A stretch of 64,000 nucleotides of DNA from Sandaracinaceae bacterium (GCA_050186575.1 JBFWYI010000006.1:35130-99129); one strand, 5' to 3'. Numbered from the stretch's first letter, positions 5,650-17,821 are shown. The notes: generated by a model from the sequence alone, not told the origin. A program made the numbers and translations.

Positions 5650-6997
5650 AGGTGAGCCGTCCCCCATGGTGCGAACGGACCTGATCGACGATCACGAGGT
5701 GGTGCGCGCCTCGCTCCCGCCGCCGCGGCCGGATCGACCGATGTCGACGCTCGCGCGGGTCGGGGCGATCATGATCCCGGCCGGCATCTGCCTCGTCGGC
5801 ATCGTGGTGTCCGCGATCCTGATCAAGACGCGCCCTGAAGCGGAGCACACCGACCCCGGCGCGCGCGGCTTGCCCGTCGTGACCCAGAGCCTCACCCCCG
5901 GCCGGCAAGACGTCGTGGTGCGGGCTCAGGGTCAGGTGGTGCCCGCGCGGCAGGTCGCGCTCAGCCCCGAGGTCACCGGGCGCGTCCTCGCGATGAGCCC
6001 GAACCTCATCCCCGGCGGTCGCGTGACGGCCGACGAGGACCTCTTGCGCATCGACGGGCGCGACTATCGGGACGCGCTCGAGCAGCAGCGCGCGCAGGTG
6101 GAGTCGTCGCAGCTCTCGTTGACACAGGAGCAGAGCCGCCAGGTGATCGCGCAGCGCGAGTGGGCGCTCCTCGGATCGACGGCGGGCTCGACGGACTCCG
6201 GGCGCGAGCTCGCGCTGCGTGAGCCGCACACCCGCGCCGCGGCGGCGTCCGTCCGTGCGGCGGAGGCGGGCGCACGACGCGCGCAATCGAACCTGTCGCG
6301 CACCACCCTCCGCGCGCCGTTCGACGCGTTCGTGCAGGCGGAGAACGTCGAGGTGGGCCAGCTCGTCGGACCGGGCTCGTCGGTCGCGACGCTGGTCGGC
6401 ACCGATCACTTCTGGGTCCGCGTCGCGGTGCCGATGGAGCAGCTCGCCTGGATCCACGTGCCCGAGGGCGAGGGCGACGTGGGCTCGAGCGCCCGGGTGA
6501 TCCAACACGTCGGCGAGGACGCGCAGATCGTGCGCACGGGCCGCGTCATCCGGCTCTACGGCGACCTCGATCCGGTCGGCCGCATGGCCCGCGTGCTCGT
6601 GGAGATCGACGATCCGCTCGGGCTCGCGCATGAGGACGGCGAGCCGCCTGCGATCCCGACCGAGGGTGACCCGTCGCACCTGCCGATGCTCCTCGGCGCG
6701 TTCGTCGACGTGGAGATCCAGGCCGGCCAGCTCGAGGACGTGTACGAGGTGCCGCGGAGCGCGCTCCACGCGGGCGACAGCGTGTATCTGTTCGGCACCG
6801 GGGCGCTCCAGATCCGCCCGCTCGAGATCGTCTGGCGGCGGCCGGACAGCGTGCTCGCGCGCGGGCTCGCCCCCGAGGACGAGCTCATCGTGAGCGCGCT
6901 CCCCACCGCGATCGAGGGCACCGCGGTGCGCCACGCGGAGGAGGACGCGCCGAGCGAGACGGAGGAGCCGGCCACGGAGACCGCGGAGGCGCCATGA
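5639..6997 (+). CDS. RND efflux periplasmic adaptor (membrane fusion protein, HlyD/AcrA family)
   Basis: N-terminal TM anchor 'IMIPAGICLVGIVVSAILI'. Coiled-coil hairpin and beta-barrel MFP motifs are present. ATG 5639 overlaps the upstream stop. The stop TGA 6995-6997 overlaps the downstream ATG 6994 as ATGA. Confidence 0.8.
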   Translation: MSGEGEPSPMVRTDLIDDHEVVRASLPPPRPDRPMSTLARVGAIMIPAGICLVGIVVSAILIKTRPEAEHTDPGARGLPVVTQSLTPGRQDVVVRAQGQVVPARQVALSPEVTGRVLAMSPNLIPGGRVTADEDLLRIDGRDYRDALEQQRAQVESSQLSLTQEQSRQVIAQREWALLGSTAGSTDSGRELALREPHTRAAAASVRAAEAGARRAQSNLSRTTLRAPFDAFVQAENVEVGQLVGPGSSVATLVGTDHFWVRVAVPMEQLAWIHVPEGEGDVGSSARVIQHVGEDAQIVRTGRVIRLYGDLDPVGRMARVLVEIDDPLGLAHEDGEPPAIPTEGDPSHLPMLLGAFVDVEIQAGQLEDVYEVPRSALHAGDSVYLFGTGALQIRPLEIVWRRPDSVLARGLAPEDELIVSALPTAIEGTAVRHAEEDAPSETEEPATETAEAP

Positions 6998-9900
6998 GCG
7001 GGCCCGAGCCGACCGGCGGGAACGACCCCGCCGCCGACGAGCGCGGCGCGGGCGCGCACGGCGGCGACGAGCGCGGCGCGGGCGCGCACGGCGCCGACGA
7101 GCACGGCGCCGACGAGCATGGCGCCGACGAGCATGGCGCCGACGAGCACGGCGCGGACGAGCAGGGCGGCGCGCCGGGGGTCTTCGCCGGCCCGCTCGCG
7201 TGGATGGCGAAGAACTCGGTCGCCGCCAACGTGCTCATGCTCCTGCTCATCATCGGGGGCCTCTTCTCGATCACTAGGATCAAGCAAGAGGTCTTCCCCG
7301 AGTTCGATCTCGACATGATCGTGATCAACGTGCCCTACCCCGGCGCGTCGCCCGAGGAGGTCGAGCAGGGCGTGATCCTCCCCATCGAGGAGTCGGTCCG
7401 CGCGATCGACGGGATCAGCGAGGTGCGCTCCACCGCGTCCGAGGGCGTGGGCGTCGTGGTGATGGAGCTCCTGGTCGGCGAGGACCCTGACCGCGTGCTC
7501 GCGGACGTGAAGAGCGCGGTCGACCGCATCACGAGCTTCCCTACCGACGTCGAAGAGCCGGTGGTGAGCCGGCCCCAGTTCCGCGGCGAGGTCATCTCCG
7601 TCGTCATCTACGGGGACGCGAGCGAGGCGGCGCTCCGCACACTCGGAGAGCGGACGCGCGACGGGCTGCTCGACGACGATGGGATCACCACCGTCGAGCT
7701 GAGCGGCGTCCGACCGCTCGAGATCGCGATCGATATCCCGCAAGATAACCTGCGTGCCTACGGCATGTCGCACAGCGACGTAGCCAACGCGATCCGCGCG
7801 GCGTCGCTCGACGTCCCGGCCGGCAACCTCCGCACCGCGGCCGGCGAGGTGCTGCTGCGCACCACGGAGCGCCGCGAGATCGGCGCCGAGTTCGAGAACA
7901 TCGTCGTGCGAATGCAGCCCGACGGGTCGCGCGTGACGGTCGGGGACCTCGGCGAGGTGACCGACGGCTTCCGCGAGGTCGACACGGCGGCGTCCTACGA
8001 GGGACAGCGCGCGGTGATGGTCAACGTGTTCCGGGTGGGCAACCAGACCCCGCTCGACATCGCGGCCAAGGTCCAAGACTACATCGCGGCGCACGAGGCG
8101 GACCTCCCGCCCGGCGTGCACTTCGCCACGTGGAACGACCGCTCGGAGTTCTATCGCGGCCGCATCGATCTGCTCGTCCGCAACGCGTACCTCGGGCTCA
8201 TCCTCGTCCTCGTGTGCCTCGGGCTGTTCCTCGAGATCCGACTCGCGTTCTGGGTGACGCTCGGCATCCCGATCTCGTTCATCGGCTCGCTCATCTTCCT
8301 GCCGACGATCGAGGGCGCGTCGATCAACATGATCTCGCTCTTCGCGTTCATCCTCACCCTAGGGATGGTCGTCGACGACGCGATCGTGGTCGGCGAGGCG
8401 GTCTACACGCGCCGCACCAAGGGCGTGCCCGCGATGCGCGCCGCGATCGAGGGCGTCAAGGAGGTTGGCGGCCCCGTCGTCTTCGCGATCCTCACGACCT
8501 GCATCTTCTTCATCCCGCTCCTCCTCGTGCCGGGCGTGATGGGGAAGTTCTTCATGCAGATCCCGATCGTCGTGATCCTGGTGCTGCTCCTCTCGCTCGG
8601 CGAGTCGCTCCTCGTCCTGCCCTCGCACCTCGGCCACCTCGACGCGACCAAGTGGTGGATCTGGGGGATCGTGGTGCTCAACGGCGCCTCGATCCCGGTC
8701 GTGTATCGCTTCAAGGGCGAGGTCTACTTCGCGCAGCTCTTCATCGAGGGCGTCTGCGTGCTCCTCCTGATCGCCGTGTACTGGAAGCCGGTGCACGCGG
8801 CGCAGCAGCGAGTCAGCCGCCTCATCGAGTGGTTGATCCAGAAGACCTACGCGCCGGTCCTCTCGCGCGCGGTCCGCAGCCGCTACATCACACTCGCGGC
8901 CGCGGTCGCGCTGTTCATCGGCGGCATCGGCATCGTCGCGGGCGGCCGCGTCGAGTGGGAGTTCTTCCCGAAGATCGACAGCGACATCGTGTCGGCGCGC
9001 ATCACCATGCCGTTCGGTACGCCGGCCGCGGTGACCGAGCAGGTGCAGCGACGCGCGCTGGACGCCTCGCACGCGGCGATCGCTCGACTGCAGCCGGACA
9101 CCGGCGAGTCGGTGGTGCGCGGGCGCTTCGCGCTGCTCGGGAGCTTCGGCGCGGCGGGCGGCGGGCCCGGGGGCAGCAACTCCGCGTCGGGCGGTCACGT
9201 CGCCGAGGTCGCGATGTTCCTCCAGCCTTCGGATCAGCGGGCATTCAGCGCACGCCAACTTGCGGAGACCTGGCGCGAGATCCTCGGCGACGTGCCGGGC
9301 GTCGAGTCGCTCCAGTTCCAGTCCGACACCGGCGGCCCGAGCGGATCCGACATCGACTTCCAGCTCAGCCACCCCGATCTTCCGACGCTCGAGCGCGCCG
9401 CCGCGGTGCTCGCCGACCGCCTGCGCGAGTACTCGGGCGTCCGCGAGATCAACGACGGCTTCGCCGAAGGCAAGGAGCAGCTCGACTTCGAGCTCCGGCC
9501 CGAGGCGCGCGCCCGCGGGATCACCGAGCAGATGCTCGCGCGTCAGCTCCGCGACGCGTTCTTCGGCGCCGAAGCGGTCCGCCAGCAGCGCGGTCGCGAC
9601 GAGCTGCGGGTCTACGTGCGGCGACCGCTCTCGGAGCGACAGTCGTTGGCCGACGTCGAGAGCATGCTGATCCGCACGCCGGACGGCGGCGAGATCCCGC
9701 TCAGCGAGGCGGCGGTGATCACGCGCGGCCGGAGCTACACGCAGATCCAGCGGCTGGACGGACGCCGCCGCGTCAACGTGACGGCCGGGGTCGACTTCGG
9801 CACGAACGCGAACCGCGTGCAGGGCGAGGTGCAGGAACAGGTGATCCCCGACCTGCTTCGGCAGTTCCCGAACCTGCGCGTCGAAGCGGGAGGCAACGCG

Positions 9901-10524
9901 AAGCGCCAGGGCGAGACGATGGTCGCGCTCGGTTACGGCTTCTTGATGGCGTTCCTCGCGATGTACGCGCTCCTCGCGATCGCGTTCAAGAGCTACGTCC
10001 AGCCGTTCATCATCGCGTCCGCGATCCCGTTCGGTTTCGTCGGCGCGGTGCTCGGTCACGCGGTCCTCGGCTATCGCTTCAGCCTCATGAGCATGATGGG
10101 CCTCGTCGCGCTCGCCGGCGTCGTGGTCAACGACTCGCTCGTCTACGTGAGCGCGGTGAACGACATCCGGCGCGACGAGCCGAACCTCTCGCTCGTCGAG
10201 GCGGTGTCCCTCGCCGGCGTGCGCCGCTTCCGCGCGATCCTGCTCACCTCGTTGACGACCTTCCTCGGGCTGACCCCGATGATCCTCGAGACGTCGGTCG
10301 GCGCGCGCTTCCTCATCCCGATGGCGATCAGCCTCGGGGTCGGCGTGATGTTCGCGACGTTCATCACCCTGCTCCTCGTGCCCTCGCTCTACCTCATCGT
10401 CGAGGACGTGGTCCGCACGGTGACGCGGGTCTCCGGGTTCGTGGTCGCCGGGATCCGGGGGCGCCGGCCGGTCGAGTCACCTCCCGGCGCGCCGACCGAG
10501 GACGCGCCTACCCACGCCGAGTAG
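6994..10524 (+). CDS. RND efflux permease (AcrB/CzcA superfamily), 12 TM, with an unusual His/Asp/Glu-rich N-terminal tail
   Basis: The 1176-aa ORF is colinear with AcrB. The TM4 motif is 'LGMVVDDAIVVGEAV' and two large periplasmic loops are present. The first about 60 aa are (GADEH)n low complexity encoded by 15-bp tandem repeats. Confidence 0.85.
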   Translation: MSGPEPTGGNDPAADERGAGAHGGDERGAGAHGADEHGADEHGADEHGADEHGADEQGGAPGVFAGPLAWMAKNSVAANVLMLLLIIGGLFSITRIKQEVFPEFDLDMIVINVPYPGASPEEVEQGVILPIEESVRAIDGISEVRSTASEGVGVVVMELLVGEDPDRVLADVKSAVDRITSFPTDVEEPVVSRPQFRGEVISVVIYGDASEAALRTLGERTRDGLLDDDGITTVELSGVRPLEIAIDIPQDNLRAYGMSHSDVANAIRAASLDVPAGNLRTAAGEVLLRTTERREIGAEFENIVVRMQPDGSRVTVGDLGEVTDGFREVDTAASYEGQRAVMVNVFRVGNQTPLDIAAKVQDYIAAHEADLPPGVHFATWNDRSEFYRGRIDLLVRNAYLGLILVLVCLGLFLEIRLAFWVTLGIPISFIGSLIFLPTIEGASINMISLFAFILTLGMVVDDAIVVGEAVYTRRTKGVPAMRAAIEGVKEVGGPVVFAILTTCIFFIPLLLVPGVMGKFFMQIPIVVILVLLLSLGESLLVLPSHLGHLDATKWWIWGIVVLNGASIPVVYRFKGEVYFAQLFIEGVCVLLLIAVYWKPVHAAQQRVSRLIEWLIQKTYAPVLSRAVRSRYITLAAAVALFIGGIGIVAGGRVEWEFFPKIDSDIVSARITMPFGTPAAVTEQVQRRALDASHAAIARLQPDTGESVVRGRFALLGSFGAAGGGPGGSNSASGGHVAEVAMFLQPSDQRAFSARQLAETWREILGDVPGVESLQFQSDTGGPSGSDIDFQLSHPDLPTLERAAAVLADRLREYSGVREINDGFAEGKEQLDFELRPEARARGITEQMLARQLRDAFFGAEAVRQQRGRDELRVYVRRPLSERQSLADVESMLIRTPDGGEIPLSEAAVITRGRSYTQIQRLDGRRRVNVTAGVDFGTNANRVQGEVQEQVIPDLLRQFPNLRVEAGGNAKRQGETMVALGYGFLMAFLAMYALLAIAFKSYVQPFIIASAIPFGFVGAVLGHAVLGYRFSLMSMMGLVALAGVVVNDSLVYVSAVNDIRRDEPNLSLVEAVSLAGVRRFRAILLTSLTTFLGLTPMILETSVGARFLIPMAISLGVGVMFATFITLLLVPSLYLIVEDVVRTVTRVSGFVVAGIRGRRPVESPPGAPTEDAPTHAE
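7036..7166 (+). repeat. In-frame coding tandem repeats: 2 x 30 bp followed by 5 x 15 bp ('GACGAGCAYGGCGCS'), encoding ...ERGAGAHGGD... then (ADEHG)5
   Basis: Read directly in the RND N-terminal coding region. Confidence 0.7.
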
Positions 10525-10948
10525 CGCCCCCGTTCCGCCGTCGTTGGATCAGCCCGTCGAGCGACCAGGCGCCCGGTCCGGCGAACAGTAACGTTACTGC
10601 GCAGAGCGCGTACACCATCGCGAGCTCCCGGTCCGAGTAGGGATCGCCCGCGTGAACGATGACGAACGCGACCACCATCGTGATGAGCAACGGCACAGCC
10701 GCGAGGCGCGTACCGAGCCCCACGATCAGCAACGCGGGCGCCACCACCTCACCGACGATCGCGAGCACGAAGGAAGTCGCGTTCCCGACCCCGAGCGGAT
10801 CGGGGAACGTCTCGAGGATCCCGGGGAGCCGCCCGAGCTTTGGAATTCCATGGCCGAAGAGCATCATGGAGGCGATGCCGATGCGCAGGAGCAGTAGACC
10901 GAGCGAGCTCGCCCACTTCAGGTCCGTGTTCAAAAGGGTCTTGAGCAT
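10508..10948 (-). CDS. DoxX family membrane protein
   Basis: About 146 aa with four hydrophobic helices. The N-terminus 'MLKTLLNTDLKWASSLGLLLLRIGIASMMLFGHGIPKL' is DoxX-like. The start was chosen at the internal Met; the longer ORF is antisense to the neighbouring gene. Confidence 0.55.
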   Translation of the reverse strand: MLKTLLNTDLKWASSLGLLLLRIGIASMMLFGHGIPKLGRLPGILETFPDPLGVGNATSFVLAIVGEVVAPALLIVGLGTRLAAVPLLITMVVAFVIVHAGDPYSDRELAMVYALCAVTLLFAGPGAWSLDGLIQRRRNGGATRRG

Positions 10949-11885
10949 GGGGGTGACGCTAGCACTCGCGATCGGGTGCGCCTCGCTCGAGCCGCTCCCG
11001 TCGCTGTACGACGACGCGACGCTCGCGCAGCAGATCCGGGACGGCGACGGGATGGATGCGCGGATCACTCGCTACAACGGCTTCGTGCACGGCGACCCCG
11101 TCGGCTACTGGACGATCGGGATCAACGGCGCGCACGCGATGCCGATCTACCAGCTCTGCCGCGCCGAGGGCTCGGACCCGTGCGTCCCGATCGACCACCC
11201 GCCGATCCTCGATGCGCTCCCCGGCGACGCCGAGTACACGCCGTACGGTCAGGTCCACTGGGTCCGGCTCCCCGAGGGCTGGGACGGCCGGCTCGCGAGC
11301 CGCGAAGAGATCGACGCGGAGGTCGCGCGCCTCGGGATCGATCCTCCGAGCCCTTCGAGCGAGCTCCACCACTGCCCGATCACCGTGCCCGAGACCGAGA
11401 TCGAGCTGGGCGAGGACATGGTCGGCACGCCAGCCGGGACGATCTACTACCGCGGGAGGGAGGCGCGGTGCTTCGACTTCGGCGCGAACCCGAACCGCGC
11501 GGTGCTCCCCAACGGCGACCTCTTCATCCGCAACGTCTACGTGCTCACGCGCGAGGGCGAGGACATGCCGCTCATGGAGGCAGCAAGGATGATGGACATC
11601 ACGGGCGACGGCGACGCCGTGGACTCCAACAACACGTTCGGGGTCGGCCTCGGCGACGGGGACTACACCCCGCTCTGGCGCATGGTCGCCGTCACGGTGC
11701 CCGCCTCGTACTCGTCGATCGACACCTCGATGAACCAGGAGCTCGCCGACTACCGCGACGCCCACGACATGTTCGACGTGTCCGCCGACTACATGATCAC
11801 GCCGCGGATGGGGCAGATCGTGGACTACACGGAGACCGAGACGCTCATCAACTGCCCGCTCCAGAGCGCGATCGGCCAGCTCTGA
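10947..11885 (+). CDS. Hypothetical lipoprotein
   Basis: Lipobox 'LALAIGCAS'. Balanced composition with many Asp/Tyr/Trp. An alternative upstream Met at 10881 (MRRSSRP...) would give a basic n-region. The ATG overlaps the DoxX start on the other strand (shared CATG). Confidence 0.5.
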   Translation: MGVTLALAIGCASLEPLPSLYDDATLAQQIRDGDGMDARITRYNGFVHGDPVGYWTIGINGAHAMPIYQLCRAEGSDPCVPIDHPPILDALPGDAEYTPYGQVHWVRLPEGWDGRLASREEIDAEVARLGIDPPSPSSELHHCPITVPETEIELGEDMVGTPAGTIYYRGREARCFDFGANPNRAVLPNGDLFIRNVYVLTREGEDMPLMEAARMMDITGDGDAVDSNNTFGVGLGDGDYTPLWRMVAVTVPASYSSIDTSMNQELADYRDAHDMFDVSADYMITPRMGQIVDYTETETLINCPLQSAIGQL

Positions 11886-11941: not shown

Positions 11942-14308
11942 ATGAGTGATGGCCCCGTATTGGGGATCGACCTCGGCACCACGAACTCCGTGGTGGCCAT
12001 CGCGGATGGCGGGCAGGCCCGCGTCATCAGCGATCCCGAGGGTCGGCGGATGGTCCCCTCGGTGGTCTCGTTCCACCCGGCCGGCCACAAGCTGGTCGGC
12101 TACGAGGCGCGCGACCGGCGGCTGATCGACGCGAAGAACACCGTCTACGCGGTGAAGCGGCTGATCGGGCGCCCGTACGACAGCCCTGAGGTCGAGCGCG
12201 CGCGGCAGCGGTTCGGGTTCGCCATCGCGCCCAACAAGCACGGCGGGTGCATCGTCGAGGTGCGCTCGGGTCGCTATGCGCTGGCCGAGATCAGCGCCAT
12301 CGTCCTGCGTGAGCTGCGACGGATCTCCGAGCTCGACCTCGGCGTCGCGTGCGAACGCGCGGTGATCACCGTGCCCGCCAACTTCAACGAGCTCCAGCGG
12401 AGCGCGACCAAGGCGGCCGGGAAGGTGGCGGGCCTCGACGTCCTGCGCATCCTCAACGAGCCGACCGCCGCCGCGCTCGCGTATGGCTACGGCAAGAAGC
12501 AGAAGGAGCGCGTCGCGGTCTACGACCTCGGCGGCGGCACGTTCGACATCACGGTCCTCGAGCTCGACAACGACGTGTTCGAGGTGCTCGCCACCGGCGG
12601 CAATAGCTTCCTCGGTGGGGAGGACATCGACCGCGCGGTCGGCGAGGTGATGGCGCAGCAGTTCCTCGAGCAGCACGGGTGGGATCCGCGCTCGGACTCG
12701 CAGGCGTTCGAGCGGCTCAAGGCGGCCGGCGAGTGGGCGAAGTGTCAGCTGAGCGAGGAGCAGGCGGTCCGCCTCACCATCGAGGAGCTCACGATCGGCG
12801 AGGGAGGCCGTCCGCTCGACCTCGAGTTCGAGATGACGCGCGCAGAGCTCGAGGAGATCTCGCACCCGTGGCTGCAGCAGTCGTTCGACGTGTGCGACGC
12901 CGCGCTGAAGGACGCGAGCTTCCGCGCCGACGAAGTCGACAGCGTCGTCTTGGTCGGCGGCTCGACCCGCATGCCGCTCTGCCGCCGCATGGTCGAGAGC
13001 TACTTCGGGATGACGCCGAACGCGGCGATCGATCCCGACATGGTCGTCGCGCAGGGCGCCGCGATCCACGGCTACGCGCTCGGCGGCGCGGCACAGGACG
13101 CCGCCGCGAAGGCGCGCGGCAAGAGCACGCTCGGACGCGTGGCGCTGCAGCGCCTCACCGCGGCGGAGATCGAGCAACGCCAACGCGCCAAGCGGATCGA
13201 CACCATCGACGGGATGCCGCGCCAACCCGCGTTCGCCCCGCCGGAGCGACCGGCGCAGGCCGCACCGCGCGCGCGCCCGGCCAAGATCTCCGATCCGCCT
13301 CCGTCGCTACCGAACCTCCCGGACGGTCCGACCGTCGTGCGCGAGGTGCGCGCGGTCACCACGCCCAAGACGACGATGGACATGGAGCTCGACGGCCTCG
13401 CGCCCGATCGGGACGCGCGCCAGGCCGGCTCCCTCGACGATCTCGCCCCGCCCGCGTTCGCCGATCCCGCCGACCCGTTCGCCGACCTCGCCCCCGACGA
13501 CCCGTTCACCGCACCGACCTCCGGAGGCAGCAAGGTAGGTTTCCTCGACGAGCTCGACGAGACCGACGCGGCGCTCGACGATCCGTTCGAGCTGCCCGCG
13601 CCGCGCGAGCGAGGGAGGAAGAAGGTGCCCGCCCGCGAGCCGACCACGCCGTTCTCGATCGACCGACGCGATGCGCTCGACCCTCCGAAGCCCCCGGTCG
13701 TAGAGCGGCGTCCGCCGCCGCCGCGCCCTCCCCCGACCCCGCGCGTCGGCACTCCGCACGTCGCGCCGCCTCTCCCCGCGCCGCCCGCACCCGTCGCGTC
13801 GCCGCCCGCGTTGCCGCCCGCGCAGAAGGCGGCGTGGCTCCCGTCTCAGCCACCTCCACTCGCGCAACCCGTGTTGCCGATGGTCGACGCCGCACCGCCC
13901 ATCCTGATGGACGTGACCCCTCACTCGCTGGGCATCGAGACGGCGGGCGGCTACTGCCGTCACCTGATCCTGAAGAACGCCCCCGTGCCCACCGAGCAGA
14001 CGCGCGGATTCACCACGGCGCGCGACGATCAGACCGAGGTCGCGGTGCGCATCTGCCAAGGCGAGTCCGACTCGTTCGACGCGAACCAGATCCTCGGCGA
14101 GGTCGTGCTCTCCGAGCTCCCGAGGAAGGCGCGCGGCTCCGTGTCGATCGACGTCGCGTTCATGCTCGACGCGGACGGGACGCTCGACGTCGACGCGGTG
14201 GAGCCGACGACCGGCACGAAGCGCAGCGTGAAGATCAACTTGCGCGGTGGCCTCAACGACGCGGACATCGCGGCGATGCGCCTCCGCATCGAGGCGGAGG
14301 AGCTGTGA
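11942..14308 (+). CDS. Hsp70 family chaperone (DnaK paralog) with a large Pro/acidic-rich insertion between the NBD and SBD-beta, and no helical lid
   Basis: The N-terminal nucleotide-binding domain 'GIDLGTTNSVVA...' is canonical through about residue 385. About 250 aa of disordered Pro/Asp-rich sequence with repeated 'DPF' motifs follow. The conserved SBD-beta 'ILMDVTPHSLGIETAGGY...' is present. The protein ends right after the DnaK-equivalent 'LNDADIAAMRLRIEAEEL'. Confidence 0.85.
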   Translation: MSDGPVLGIDLGTTNSVVAIADGGQARVISDPEGRRMVPSVVSFHPAGHKLVGYEARDRRLIDAKNTVYAVKRLIGRPYDSPEVERARQRFGFAIAPNKHGGCIVEVRSGRYALAEISAIVLRELRRISELDLGVACERAVITVPANFNELQRSATKAAGKVAGLDVLRILNEPTAAALAYGYGKKQKERVAVYDLGGGTFDITVLELDNDVFEVLATGGNSFLGGEDIDRAVGEVMAQQFLEQHGWDPRSDSQAFERLKAAGEWAKCQLSEEQAVRLTIEELTIGEGGRPLDLEFEMTRAELEEISHPWLQQSFDVCDAALKDASFRADEVDSVVLVGGSTRMPLCRRMVESYFGMTPNAAIDPDMVVAQGAAIHGYALGGAAQDAAAKARGKSTLGRVALQRLTAAEIEQRQRAKRIDTIDGMPRQPAFAPPERPAQAAPRARPAKISDPPPSLPNLPDGPTVVREVRAVTTPKTTMDMELDGLAPDRDARQAGSLDDLAPPAFADPADPFADLAPDDPFTAPTSGGSKVGFLDELDETDAALDDPFELPAPRERGRKKVPAREPTTPFSIDRRDALDPPKPPVVERRPPPPRPPPTPRVGTPHVAPPLPAPPAPVASPPALPPAQKAAWLPSQPPPLAQPVLPMVDAAPPILMDVTPHSLGIETAGGYCRHLILKNAPVPTEQTRGFTTARDDQTEVAVRICQGESDSFDANQILGEVVLSELPRKARGSVSIDVAFMLDADGTLDVDAVEPTTGTKRSVKINLRGGLNDADIAAMRLRIEAEEL

Positions 14309-14817
14309 GCGATCAGCTCGAGCTCCTCGACTACTACACGCTCTTGGGCGTGGATCGCGGGGCGAGCGCCGACGCGGTCAAGGCGGCGTTCCGCGACTTT
14401 GCGCGGCGCTATCACCCGGATCGTTTCGGCGGGGCACCGGAAGACAAGCTGCGGCGGGCGACGCAGATCTACCGACGCGGGAGCGAGGCCTACCAGATCC
14501 TCAGCAATCCGGTGTCGCGCAAGGCGTACGATCGCGTGTTGCGCGTCGGGCGCATGCGCCTGTCCGCCGAGGAGCGCGACAAGGCCGCGCAGGAGGAACG
14601 CCCGGCCGCGGCGCCCGCGCCGCAGAAGAAGCCGGAGAACCCGATCCGATCGACGGCCGCGCTCGAGTTCTACCATCGCTCCGCCGAAGCGGCGCGCGCC
14701 GGCAACTGGCGCGACGCGTGGAAGTCGATGAAGCGCGCGGTCGAGATCGAGCCCGAGAACGAGCTCCTTCGAGGCCGCTTGACGCAGATCGAAGCGAAGC
14801 TCCGCACCTCTCGGTGA
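14305..14817 (+). CDS. J-domain (DnaJ-like) co-chaperone, about 170 aa
   Basis: 'DYYTLLGVDRGASADAVKAAFRDFARRYHPDR' contains the HPD motif. A GTG start overlaps the Hsp70 TGA as GTGA. A C-terminal TPR-like helix pair is present. Confidence 0.7.
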   Translation: MSDQLELLDYYTLLGVDRGASADAVKAAFRDFARRYHPDRFGGAPEDKLRRATQIYRRGSEAYQILSNPVSRKAYDRVLRVGRMRLSAEERDKAAQEERPAAAPAPQKKPENPIRSTAALEFYHRSAEAARAGNWRDAWKSMKRAVEIEPENELLRGRLTQIEAKLRTSR

Positions 14818-15149
14818 CAGGGGACGTGGTGCCCCAACGAGCCGCCGCGTCTGACACCTACGCGCGCATCTATCGCGTCGTGCGACGGATCCCGGAGGGC
14901 AAGGTCGCCACCTACGGGCAGATCGCGGCGCTGGTGGGCAACGTCGGCGCGCGCCAGGTCGGCTACGCGCTCCACGCGCTCCGGGACGACACCGTCCCGT
15001 GGCAGCGCGTGATCAACGCGAAGGGTGAGATCAGCCCGCGGCCAGAGGCGGACCATCAGCGGGTGCGACTCTTGGCCGAAGGTGTCGTGTTCGATGGGCG
15101 CGGTCGGGTGGATCTGCACGCGTACCGGTGGCGACCGCGGAGGCGGTAG
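14814..15149 (+). CDS. Alkyltransferase-like (Atl) / MGMT-family DNA-binding protein lacking the catalytic Cys
   Basis: 'TYGQIAALVGNVGARQVGYAL...VPWQRVINAKGEIS' matches the MGMT helix-turn-helix and Asn-hinge region. The 'PCHR' active site is replaced by 'PWQR', as in Atl/YbaZ. A GTG start overlaps the J-protein stop. Confidence 0.6.
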   Translation: MTGDVVPQRAAASDTYARIYRVVRRIPEGKVATYGQIAALVGNVGARQVGYALHALRDDTVPWQRVINAKGEISPRPEADHQRVRLLAEGVVFDGRGRVDLHAYRWRPRRR

Positions 15150-15225
15150 CGGCTCGATCGCGTCGGGCGACTTCGCGGGGGTGGTGGTTCGCGTAGGTCT
15201 CGGTGAGCGCGGGCTCTCGTGTACG

Positions 15226-15280
15226 TGGACGAGCACGAGGACGTCCACGTGCACGAGGACGTCCACGTGCACGTGCGGGT
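15226..15280. repeat. Direct 18-bp repeat 'CACGAGGACGTCCACGTG' x2, rich in the 6-bp palindromes CACGTG (x3) and GACGTC (x2)
   Basis: Read directly: gtacgtggacgagCACGAGGACGTCCACGTGCACGAGGACGTCCACGTGcacgtgcgg. It lies in the intergenic region upstream of the MBL / sigma-54 activator genes. Confidence 0.6.
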
Positions 15281-15401: not shown

Positions 15402-15431
15402 TGAGTGTGCGCTCCGAGGAGGCTGACCCCC

Positions 15432-16262
15432 ATGAACCTGACGATCCGATTTTGGGGCGTACGCGGCAGCATCGCGACGCCTGGACCCCGCACCGTACGA
15501 ACCGGCGGCAACACCCCCTGCGTCGAGATCTCGTGCGAGGACACCCTCTTGATCCTCGACGCCGGCACCGGCATCCGCGATCTCGGCGAGCGCCTGATGC
15601 GCGAGGACCGACGCGACGCGACGCTGCTCCTGAGCCACCTGCACTGGGATCACATCCAAGGGCTCCCGTTCTTCGTCCCCGCGTACGTACCCGGCCGCTC
15701 GCTCACCATCCGAGGAGCTCGCGGATTGCAAGACGCGCTGTCGGCGCAGATGACCGCGCCGAGCTTCCCCGTCACCCTCGACGCGTTCGGCGCCGACGTC
15801 GCGTTCCGCGCGGTCGTGAGCGGCGAGCGCTTCGACGTCGGACCCTTCTCTATCCAGGCGGCCGGCCTCAACCACCCCGGTGGCGTCCTCGGGTACCGCG
15901 TCACGCTCGGCGATCGTTCGATCGTCTACGCGACCGACACCGAACACTACGCTTGTCCCGACCCACGCCTCATCGATCTCGCAAGGGACGCTGACGTGCT
16001 GATCTACGATGCGATGTACACCGACGCGGAGTACCCGACGAAGGTCGGCTGGGGTCACTCCACGTGGACCGCCGGCGTCGACGTCGCGGACGCGGCGGGG
16101 GTCGACCGGCTGGTCCTCTTCCATCACGATCCGACGCGCGACGACGACGCGGTGGACGCGATCGAGCGCGCCGCCGCGGCCACGCGAGGCGGCACCGTCG
16201 CCGCCCGAGAGGGAGAGTCGCTCGTCCTCGCGGCGACCCCGGGAGCACGGCGCGCGGCGTGA
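15432..16262 (+). CDS. MBL-fold metallo-hydrolase
   Basis: The '[14 protein letters not shown]' HxHxDH motif is present, with downstream His/Asp ligands. The ATG is preceded by GAGGAGG. Confidence 0.75.
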
Positions 16263-16270
16263 GCGGAGGT

Positions 16271-17821
<1,551 letters not shown>

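Follow-up and report, generated by a model that had tools for sequence, protein, structure and literature searches.

Described Hsp70 systems and the locus under study

Three types of Hsp70 are recognised in bacteria, namely DnaK, HscA and HscC (PMC8215388). In Myxococcus and Anaeromyxobacter, an expansion, still ill understood, of "DnaK derivates" whose lids are shortened or absent has also been reported (PMC8265645, PMC13580251). The present work deals with an atypical Hsp70 and its gene neighbours, found in a stretch of 64,000 nucleotides from Sandaracinaceae bacterium (GCA_050186575.1, JBFWYI010000006.1:35130-99129). This whole stretch is called the window below, and all positions are counted from its first letter. 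Three genes are densely packed there on the + strand, those of the Hsp70 (11942..14308, 788 amino acids (aa)), of a class-C J-protein (14305..14817, 170 aa) and of an alkyltransferase-like protein (ATL; 14826..15149, 107 aa). With moderate confidence, we regard the first two as a conserved operon for a specialised Hsp70/J chaperone pair, found here only in Sandaracinaceae/Polyangiales-type Myxococcota (among the best 80 of 125 relatives). The third gene is a chance, lineage-specific neighbour that lies outside the conserved module.

As regards their way of working, the nearest described systems are the dedicated pairs HscA-HscB and HscC-DjlC. HscB is a J-protein of similar size and plan to that of the window. 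However, HscA has a full lid and no insert, unlike the window Hsp70, and no isc genes occur in any of the neighbourhoods seen of the Hsp70-J pair. The window Hsp70 reaches 481 bits with the HscA model TIGR01991, whose cut-off is 709, and the J-protein 36 bits with the NCBIfam HscB model, against a cut-off of 198. In the same way, the NCBIfam models of canonical DnaK are matched below their cut-offs (PRK00290/TIGR02350, 538 vs 648 bits and 526 vs 823). The Escherichia coli HscC, which works with DjlB/DjlC, is a non-canonical Hsp70 with an altered substrate-binding domain (SBD), adjacent J-proteins, low expression and clients that are narrow or unknown (PMC8215388). The association of a non-canonical Hsp70 with one or several dedicated adjacent J-proteins is also that of the window pair. 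HscC is nevertheless characterised by a shortened lid, a deletion of residues 76-101 in the nucleotide-binding domain (NBD) and an insertion in loop L1,2 of the SBD-beta, and it carries no insert before the linker (PMC8215388). By alignment to E. coli DnaK, the window Hsp70 retains region 76-101, has no L1,2 insertion and has no lid, so that the features of HscC are not found in it.

Engineered lid-truncated Hsp70s (Mycoplasma genitalium DnaK delta-SBD-alpha, 5obu; BiP, 7a4u; mortalin, 9blu) have the same content after the linker and are among the fold matches of the window protein. These are laboratory constructs, whereas the truncation in the window family is natural, conserved and accompanied by an insert of 112-518 aa. 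The myxobacterial "DnaK derivates" (MXAN_2747, MXAN_3016, MXAN_5323, MXAN_7025 and StkA of Myxococcus xanthus; Anaeromyxobacter paralogues) belong to the same expansion, their lids being shortened or missing. It was argued that many of these lid-truncated derivatives have maybe lost the canonical function (PMC13580251). Myxobacteria carry up to 15 Hsp70 genes, the non-canonical ones showing mild and similar phenotypes in M. xanthus (sporulation, oxidative stress) (PMC8265645). In the literature on atypical, or Pro-rich/interdomain-linker, myxobacterial Hsp70s, no description was found of the layout NBD - long insert - linker - SBD-beta, nor of a co-diverging partner that joins a J-domain to a tetratricopeptide repeat (TPR).

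Two other groups of proteins resemble one member of the pair. Hsp110/Grp170 are likewise Hsp70-derived with large disordered insertions. However, the insertions of Hsp110 lie in the SBD-beta and the lid, its linker has diverged and it is an exchange factor without need of a J-protein, whereas the insert of the window Hsp70 precedes a conserved linker, its J surface is conserved and a J-protein is attached to it. DNAJC7/TPR2 and DNAJC3/p58IPK associate, like the window J-protein, a J-domain with TPR-type repeats. They possess 6-9 TPRs that serve as peptide-binding grooves, whereas the window J-protein has one TPR-like hairpin with a capping helix, which is not large enough to form a carboxylate clamp. 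Judged by sequence, the Hsp70 family described below belongs to none of canonical DnaK, HscA, HscC and Hsp110. In the terms of this literature, it is an undescribed variant of a known chaperone machine.

A lidless Hsp70 family with an insert before the linker

The Hsp70 gene is a single open reading frame (ORF), free of stops and frameshifts. Its product matches Pfam PF00012 (E=6e-153) in two separate stretches. When compared by phmmer with the PDB, aa 4-386 align to the NBD of mortalin/DnaK and aa 651-780 to the SBD-beta (mortalin 388-517, E=1e-24), no match being found for the 264 residues in between. The C-terminus lies 8 aa past the aligned SBD-beta. A reading of this DNA made beforehand without database searches (the sequence-only reading) had proposed a canonical NBD and a conserved SBD-beta separated by about 250 aa of disordered Pro/Asp/Ala-rich sequence, with no lid; all these points hold.

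From its N-terminus, the protein comprises the NBD, which is the ATPase (aa 1-386, 11942..13099; predicted local distance difference test score, pLDDT, >85), then an insert (aa 387-650) that can be divided into three parts, then the SBD-beta sandwich (aa 651-772, 13892..14257; pLDDT 85-95). The interdomain linker PPILMDVTP (aa 652-660, 13895..13921), equivalent of DnaK 389-VLLLDVTP, opens this last region. Only a stub of 15 aa of lid helix A (aa 773-787, a helix according to DSSP) follows, with the stop codon (14258..14308). The remainder of the SBD-alpha and the C-terminal tail are absent.

The same protein is present in public databases at 100% identity, from a metagenome-assembled genome of Sandaracinaceae (P0001, "Hsp70 family protein [Sandaracinaceae bacterium]"), and an assembly check found it recorded from contigs of 187,887 and 4,963 bases. 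The order NBD, insert, SBD-beta, no lid is common to 119 of its 120 best homologues, the lone exception being annotated as partial. In these 119 proteins, the NBD ends at about aa 385, the insert measures 112-518 aa and the C-terminus falls within 0-14 aa of the end of the window Hsp70. The lidless insert-bearing layout is a conserved family trait and not an artefact. Those homologues that carry a taxon name belong to Sandaracinaceae, to Sandaracinus (with the cultured Sandaracinus amylolyticus among them), to Polyangiales and to unclassified Myxococcota. They bear just the generic label "Hsp70 family protein", and neither Pfam nor NCBIfam returned a family-specific model for a lidless insert-bearing Hsp70.

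A model of the Hsp70 was obtained with AlphaFold2 (AF2) from the family alignment (predicted template modelling score 0.72). The NBD and the SBD-beta have pLDDT >85, and aa 386-640 have pLDDT 39-66. The folded domains are docked, the SBD-beta lying on the NBD as in ATP-bound DnaK. The closest fold matches are ATP-bound, domain-docked DnaK structures (4b9q, 5nro and 7kzu), with target-normalised template modelling scores of 0.77-0.89.

Residue conservation was counted over the 119 family members in DnaK numbering, the E. coli DnaK taken as reference being identical to the DnaK chains of the PDB save for engineered substitutions. The catalytic residues D8, K70, E171, D194, T199 and D201 are all found in the window Hsp70 and are invariant in 118-119 of the 119 members. 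The relay residues P143, R151 and K155 are conserved, and those that contact the J-protein (R167, N170, T173, E217, V218) are invariant or nearly so. The linker follows the consensus PP(L/I)L(M/L)DVTP, in which the equivalents of L391 and D393 never vary (119/119). In the pocket, F426, Q433 and V436 show little or no variation, and M404 of the arch is replaced by V or A. Since the catalytic, allosteric, J-contact, linker and pocket residues are all invariant or conservatively replaced, the Hsp70 cycle is expected to be functional and not broken. It had been suggested in the sequence-only reading that an insertion of this size would drastically alter allosteric coupling. This appears overstated, as the insert sits before a fully conserved linker, the relay and the J-surface are invariant and AF2 docks the SBD-beta as in DnaK.

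Around the nucleotide, the lower salt bridge of the cleft is lost (R56 replaced by E or D, E264 by A), as is the hydrophobic clamp (L257 replaced by Q); K55 and E267 are kept in the family. The tuning of nucleotide exchange in Hsp70s has been summarised for HscA and HscC (PMC8215388). Loss of the clamp and of the salt bridge (R56, E264, L257) leads to the prediction of a faster intrinsic exchange. By likeness to HscA and HscC, the clamp loss suggests that exchange would be fast and may be GrpE-independent.

The insert counts 264 aa, of which 21.8% are Pro, 15.3% Ala and 8.8% Asp. Its first part is a basic N-module (aa 387-440, 13100..13261; net charge +6, 9% Pro) with the motifs LGRVAL(K/Q)(K/R) and P(K/R)QPAFAP. 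In the family, this module follows the pattern sLG(R/K)VALK(K/R)(V/I)S..(E/D)L, then P(K/R)QPAFAP. QPAF occurs in 86 of the 119 family inserts, compared with 0.6 expected from shuffles; LGRV is found in 37 and RVAL in 40 of them, for about 1 expected. The pLDDT of the module is low to moderate, with a helix predicted by AF2 at aa 407-418.

The second part is an acidic region (aa 441-575, 13262..13666; net charge -10, 17% Pro, pLDDT 39-50) rich in short linear motifs: TPKTTMDMELDGLAP, LDDLAPPAF, DPFADLAPDDPF, LDDPFELP and REPTTPFSID. The repeated DPF and DDPFELP motifs pointed out in the sequence-only reading are real, DPF occurring three times (aa 511, 520 and 547; "DDPFTAP", "DDPFELP") for 0.13 expected from shuffles (P(>=3)=0.0002). 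Over the whole family, 52 DPF are observed vs 8.3 expected, yet they are confined to 36 of the 119 proteins. Among the orthologues of the window protein (55-82% identity), the DPF positions are kept inside a block LDDLAPPxF..DPFADLAPDDPF. Two conserved blocks, TP(K/R)TT(L/I)DxELDxLAPP and REPTxPFS(L/I)D, flank it, and the spacers between them vary.

The third part is a Pro-rich tract (aa 576-650, 13667..13891; about 40% Pro, net charge +4 over aa 576-648, pLDDT 50-56). Its length and sequence are highly variable across the family, in which total inserts span the range given above. The motif pattern of the insert is of the kind that short linear interaction motifs commonly form within a disordered tether, and we infer that the insert is more than a spacer. 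Two resemblances were considered for these motifs. DDPF, internal here, resembles the C-terminal tip of the single-stranded DNA-binding protein SSB (DDDIPF), a tip motif that requires a free C-terminus, and QPAFAP resembles the C-terminal peptide of FtsZ. Neither resemblance was adopted.

The J-protein and the neighbouring genes

The GTG start of the J-protein gene (14305-14307) overlaps the stop codon TGA of the Hsp70 gene (14306-14308) within ctGTGAgc. This junction, together with the minimal size of the J-protein and its HPD motif, is as announced in the sequence-only reading. DnaJ is the sole Pfam domain of the protein (aa 9-76, 2e-16). It contains YHPDRF, whose HPD is invariant in 85 aligned homologues. 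The J-domain is followed by an extra helix, a short linker and a TPR-like unit of three helices (aa 117-169). The AF2 model (mean pLDDT 91) contains only the J-domain and helices. A search of the last 70 residues against 1.84 billion representatives retrieved mainly multi-repeat proteins, which confirms a TPR-type motif at the sequence level, without informative new architecture. From its sequence and its model, the protein is a minimal class-C J-protein with one TPR-like unit, devoid of the glycine/phenylalanine (G/F) region, the zinc finger and the C-terminal domains of DnaJ.

The association with the Hsp70 is conserved. A DnaJ-only protein of 161-190 aa was found directly downstream of the Hsp70 homologue in all five of the genomic contexts looked up. 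A profile scan of 185,579 species-representative genomes with the J-protein alignment gave 125 relatives. The best 80 of these 125, which were inspected, all belong to Sandaracinaceae, Polyangiales or unclassified Myxococcota-type metagenome-assembled genomes. Of 87 loci, 77 have an Hsp70 that terminates with its SBD-beta and ends no more than 200 nt ahead of the J start. Among 81 loci, 27 share a 4-bp overlap (RTGA), and most of the remaining ones leave <=16 nt between the two genes. The two genes are probably translationally coupled, as far as can be judged from this spacing.

Furthermore, the two proteins have diverged together. Pairwise distances, calculated on 591 well-occupied columns for the Hsp70 (insert left out) and 153 columns for the J-protein, give a Mantel r of 0.73, reached by 0/2000 permutations. 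Average-linkage clusters of the Hsp70 and of the J-protein are identical at k=2 and k=3 (19/28/11), and in all nine same-genome pairs of loci tested (9/9), the two loci fall in different clusters. Identical clusters and the dispersal of same-genome pairs among them indicate that the Hsp70-J pair was duplicated and diverged as a unit, giving at least three subfamilies. By adjacency and co-divergence, the J-protein is thus best seen as the dedicated partner of the Hsp70. The genomes with two pairs are those of loci L010/L042, L024/L065, L045/L064, L050/L052, L023/L074, L019/L059, L040/L051, L027/L072 and L071/L078. Their inserts have very different lengths, the total Hsp70 measuring for example 1003 vs 682 aa.

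The genes around the pair differ between subfamilies. In S. amylolyticus DSM 53668 (CP011125.1), the pair is located at about 4,416,556-4,419,242 (L001, 5001-7687), and hisB, hisH, hisA and hisF (L001, 7689-10427) come after the J-gene on the same strand, with a 1-nt gap. ORF clustering points to this hisBHAF linkage in about 28 further loci of subfamily 1, hisB being Pfam-confirmed in L001 only. In the window, a 310-aa gene without assigned function (10953..11885, + strand, called on the identical public contig) stops 56 nt ahead of the Hsp70 gene. The encoded protein begins with MGVTLALAIGC, which has the look of a lipoprotein signal, and the long ORF 10659-11882 that contains the gene has no match in Pfam. 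Unannotated genes for 322 aa (L005) and 317 aa (L006) occupy the same upstream position, the correspondence being one of size and place only. The rest of the upstream neighbourhood consists of a resistance-nodulation-division (RND) pump gene (6994-10524, + strand) and a DoxX gene (10508-11068, - strand). A similar order of RND pump, DoxX and unannotated gene is seen in the closest relatives L002, L005 and L006 and not in the other subfamilies; synteny of the window with these three loci stops directly past the J-gene. No flanking gene is common to all subfamilies, synteny being subfamily-specific, and the flanks give no functional hint. PADLOC defence models have zero matches for the Hsp70, the J-protein, the ATL or the upstream gene.

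Some features of the surroundings may be mentioned in passing. At 7032-7168, about 9 copies of the 15-nt unit CGCCGACGAGCACGG code for (GADEH)n, an unusual acidic/His repeat that forms the N-terminus of the RND/AcrB-type transporter encoded by 6994-10524, before its first transmembrane segment. At 15218-15276, an 18-nt unit ACGTGCACGAGGACGTCC is repeated 2.5 times, with a CGTGCA-type periodicity of 6 nt (x9.8), within the 255 nt that separate the ATL gene from a metallo-beta-lactamase-fold gene (15405-16262). Another gene, 0.9 kb downstream (16064-17821), codes for a sigma-54-dependent activator that combines a GAF sensor domain with a Fis-type helix-turn-helix. Its long ORF runs into the end of the metallo-beta-lactamase-fold gene, and its true start is probably later.

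The ATL consists of a PF01035 domain alone (3e-20). Its closest PDB matches are Vibrio vpAtl (2kif, 3e-18) and Schizosaccharomyces pombe Atl1 (3gva, 8e-16). Trp takes the place of the acceptor Cys in the motif VPWQRV (PWQR, to be compared with PWFR and PWHR), and the Arg finger ARQVG and the Tyr motif TYGQIA are present. On these motifs, it is a genuine alkyltransferase-like protein, with the same single PF01035 domain, Trp for Cys, Arg finger and Tyr as Atl1, vpAtl and E. coli YbaZ/eAtl. The sole difference is the residue after the Trp, Q here, H in Atl1 and F in vpAtl. The presence of PWQR in place of PCHR, to which the sequence-only reading drew attention, is thus real but not unusual, 95 of the 120 nearest ATL homologues having PWQR and the other 25 PWHR. 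The same reading made the ATL start from a GTG that overlaps the J stop. Such an in-frame GTG does exist at 14814, overlapping the TGA 14815-14817, and would give 111 aa. It is not the preferred start, however: the public annotation of the identical sequence begins at GTG 14826, 8 nt past the J stop, and the N-termini of ATL homologues suit this later start better. The ATL gene, whose product would be a DNA-lesion sensor unrelated to the chaperones, is probably co-transcribed with the Hsp70-J pair in this lineage, and in itself it brings nothing new.

Mechanism, alternative readings and significance

How could a specialised Hsp70/J pair of this type work? The J-protein would make its cognate Hsp70 hydrolyse ATP faster, in the manner of HscB acting on HscA. 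The lidless SBD-beta would bind extended hydrophobic segments, with fast binding and release; lid-truncated DnaK has fast peptide kinetics. Nucleotide exchange would be fast and perhaps GrpE-independent, the clamp and the salt bridge being lost. With ATP bound, the linker and the SBD-beta would lie docked on the NBD; in the ADP state, they would move away from it at the end of a tether that may reach about 260 residues, the Pro-rich part of which would form a stiff tract. The insert could thereby act as both a long tether and a docking platform that holds partners or clients, or localises the machine.

Several points weigh against this reading or against parts of it. The pairing is not absolute, as no Hsp70 was detected directly upstream of the J homologue in four or five loci (L055, L077, L079 and L080), for which sequence is available; these may be orphan J-genes, or the partner may be too diverged or lie past a contig end. 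The Mantel correlation is partly due to shared species phylogeny, so that the concordance of clusters between same-genome paralogues is the stronger argument. A consensus scan of the + strand for promoters and terminators gave nothing usable, which leaves gene spacing as the basis for co-transcription and coupling. Finally, AF2 proposes no confident contact for any motif of the insert, and what is said here of the clients, the localisation and the role of the insert is pure inference.

A bolder version may be advanced, tentatively. The family could represent a fourth class of bacterial Hsp70 beside DnaK, HscA and HscC, in which the lid would have been traded for a tether of 100-500 residues bearing motifs (LGRVALKK, QPAFAP, DPF/LDDL, REPTxPF). 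Through the ATP cycle, a distant and fast-exchanging SBD-beta would be reeled onto the NBD and off it again. The motifs would anchor the machine at a specific cellular structure or gate it there; they might be recognised by the TPR-like unit of the J-protein, or act in cis as pseudo-substrate or pseudo-linker. Three orthogonal pairs per genome would then serve different targets.

Other explanations of the locus have to be considered. The Hsp70 could be a repurposed DnaK derivative, either a regulator of canonical DnaK comparable to Hsp110 or a scaffold that exposes the motifs of the insert under the control of its ATPase. This would be in line with the possible loss of canonical function proposed for truncated-lid myxobacterial derivatives (PMC13580251) and with the association of lid loss and a large disordered insertion, which is loosely Hsp110-like. 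Furthermore, LGRVALKK resembles a DnaK-type site by its hydrophobic core and basic flanks, and could be a pseudo-substrate or a pseudo-linker in cis; AF2, however, puts LGRVAL in neither the pocket nor the cleft, with pLDDT <50. Hsp110 exchange factors are J-independent, whereas a J-protein with HPD co-diverges with this Hsp70. Its J-contact residues, linker and pocket are invariant, and the pre-linker insertion site is unlike those of Hsp110, which are in the SBD-beta and the lid. We consider such a repurposing unlikely.

A general back-up role, that of a redundant DnaK/DnaJ paralogue whose insert would be a neutral low-complexity expansion, seems improbable. It is true that myxobacteria have up to 15 Hsp70 genes, the non-canonical ones with mild phenotypes in M. 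xanthus (PMC8265645), and that the length of the insert varies almost five-fold. However, motif positions are kept between proteins that share 55-82% identity, QPAFAP is family-wide and lid loss is constant. The J-protein, for its part, has none of the G/F region, zinc finger and client-binding domains of DnaJ/CbpA. Three anciently separate, co-diverging subfamilies are found together in single genomes, and this speaks for specialisation.

In the sequence-only reading, the three genes formed one co-translated module. On this basis, the Hsp70 and the J-protein could serve the ATL as a damage sensor, for example by remodelling ATL-DNA or ATL-repair complexes. The three genes do share one strand, with a 4-bp overlap followed by an overlap or an 8-nt gap, and the ATL has intact DNA-binding and base-flipping motifs. 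The Hsp70-J part of the module stands, as the numbers given above for adjacency (77/87 loci) and for RTGA overlap (27/81) indicate, but the ATL part does not. No ATL gene occurs within 5 kb in any of the 86 other Hsp70-J loci (86/86), including the closest relative L005 (86% identity over conserved Hsp70 columns), in which another gene comes after the J-gene. The nearest ATL orthologues (85% and 82% identity) stand alone in unrelated contexts, one by a GGDEF gene and one by hydrolase genes. Moreover, hisBHAF is equally tight behind the pair in another subfamily, so that downstream packing is uninformative. A chaperone pair in the service of the ATL is thus very improbable.

Lastly, it is scarcely credible that the insert is a mis-join of an NBD-only gene with an SBD fragment, a possibility raised in the sequence-only reading itself, or that the gene is a frameshifted or decaying pseudogene: long spurious ORFs do occur in GC-rich genomes, and the NBD and SBD-beta lie in different frames in L022, L038 and L084 (which may be pseudogenes or carry assembly indel errors), but the window gene is one continuous frame with conserved motifs within the insert and the linker in frame right after it, the identical protein comes from two contigs, and mis-joining or frameshift is ruled out because 119 of the 120 homologues have the same continuous layout.

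The allostery of Hsp70s is known almost wholly from proteins with a linker of about 10 residues and a lidded SBD. The family of specialised Hsp70/J pairs described here constitutes a natural experiment, in which the allosteric and J-contact residues have been kept, up to 500 disordered residues have been placed before the linker and the lid has gone. As a third departure, this Hsp70 family has a J-protein of its own that co-diverges with it, genomes carrying several orthogonal copies. Study of the family could reveal in what way an Hsp70 is retuned by the length of its tether, by short linear motifs and by the loss of the lid. As S. amylolyticus is cultivable, it offers an entry point to the role of the myxobacterial "DnaK derivates", a question that has been raised in reviews.

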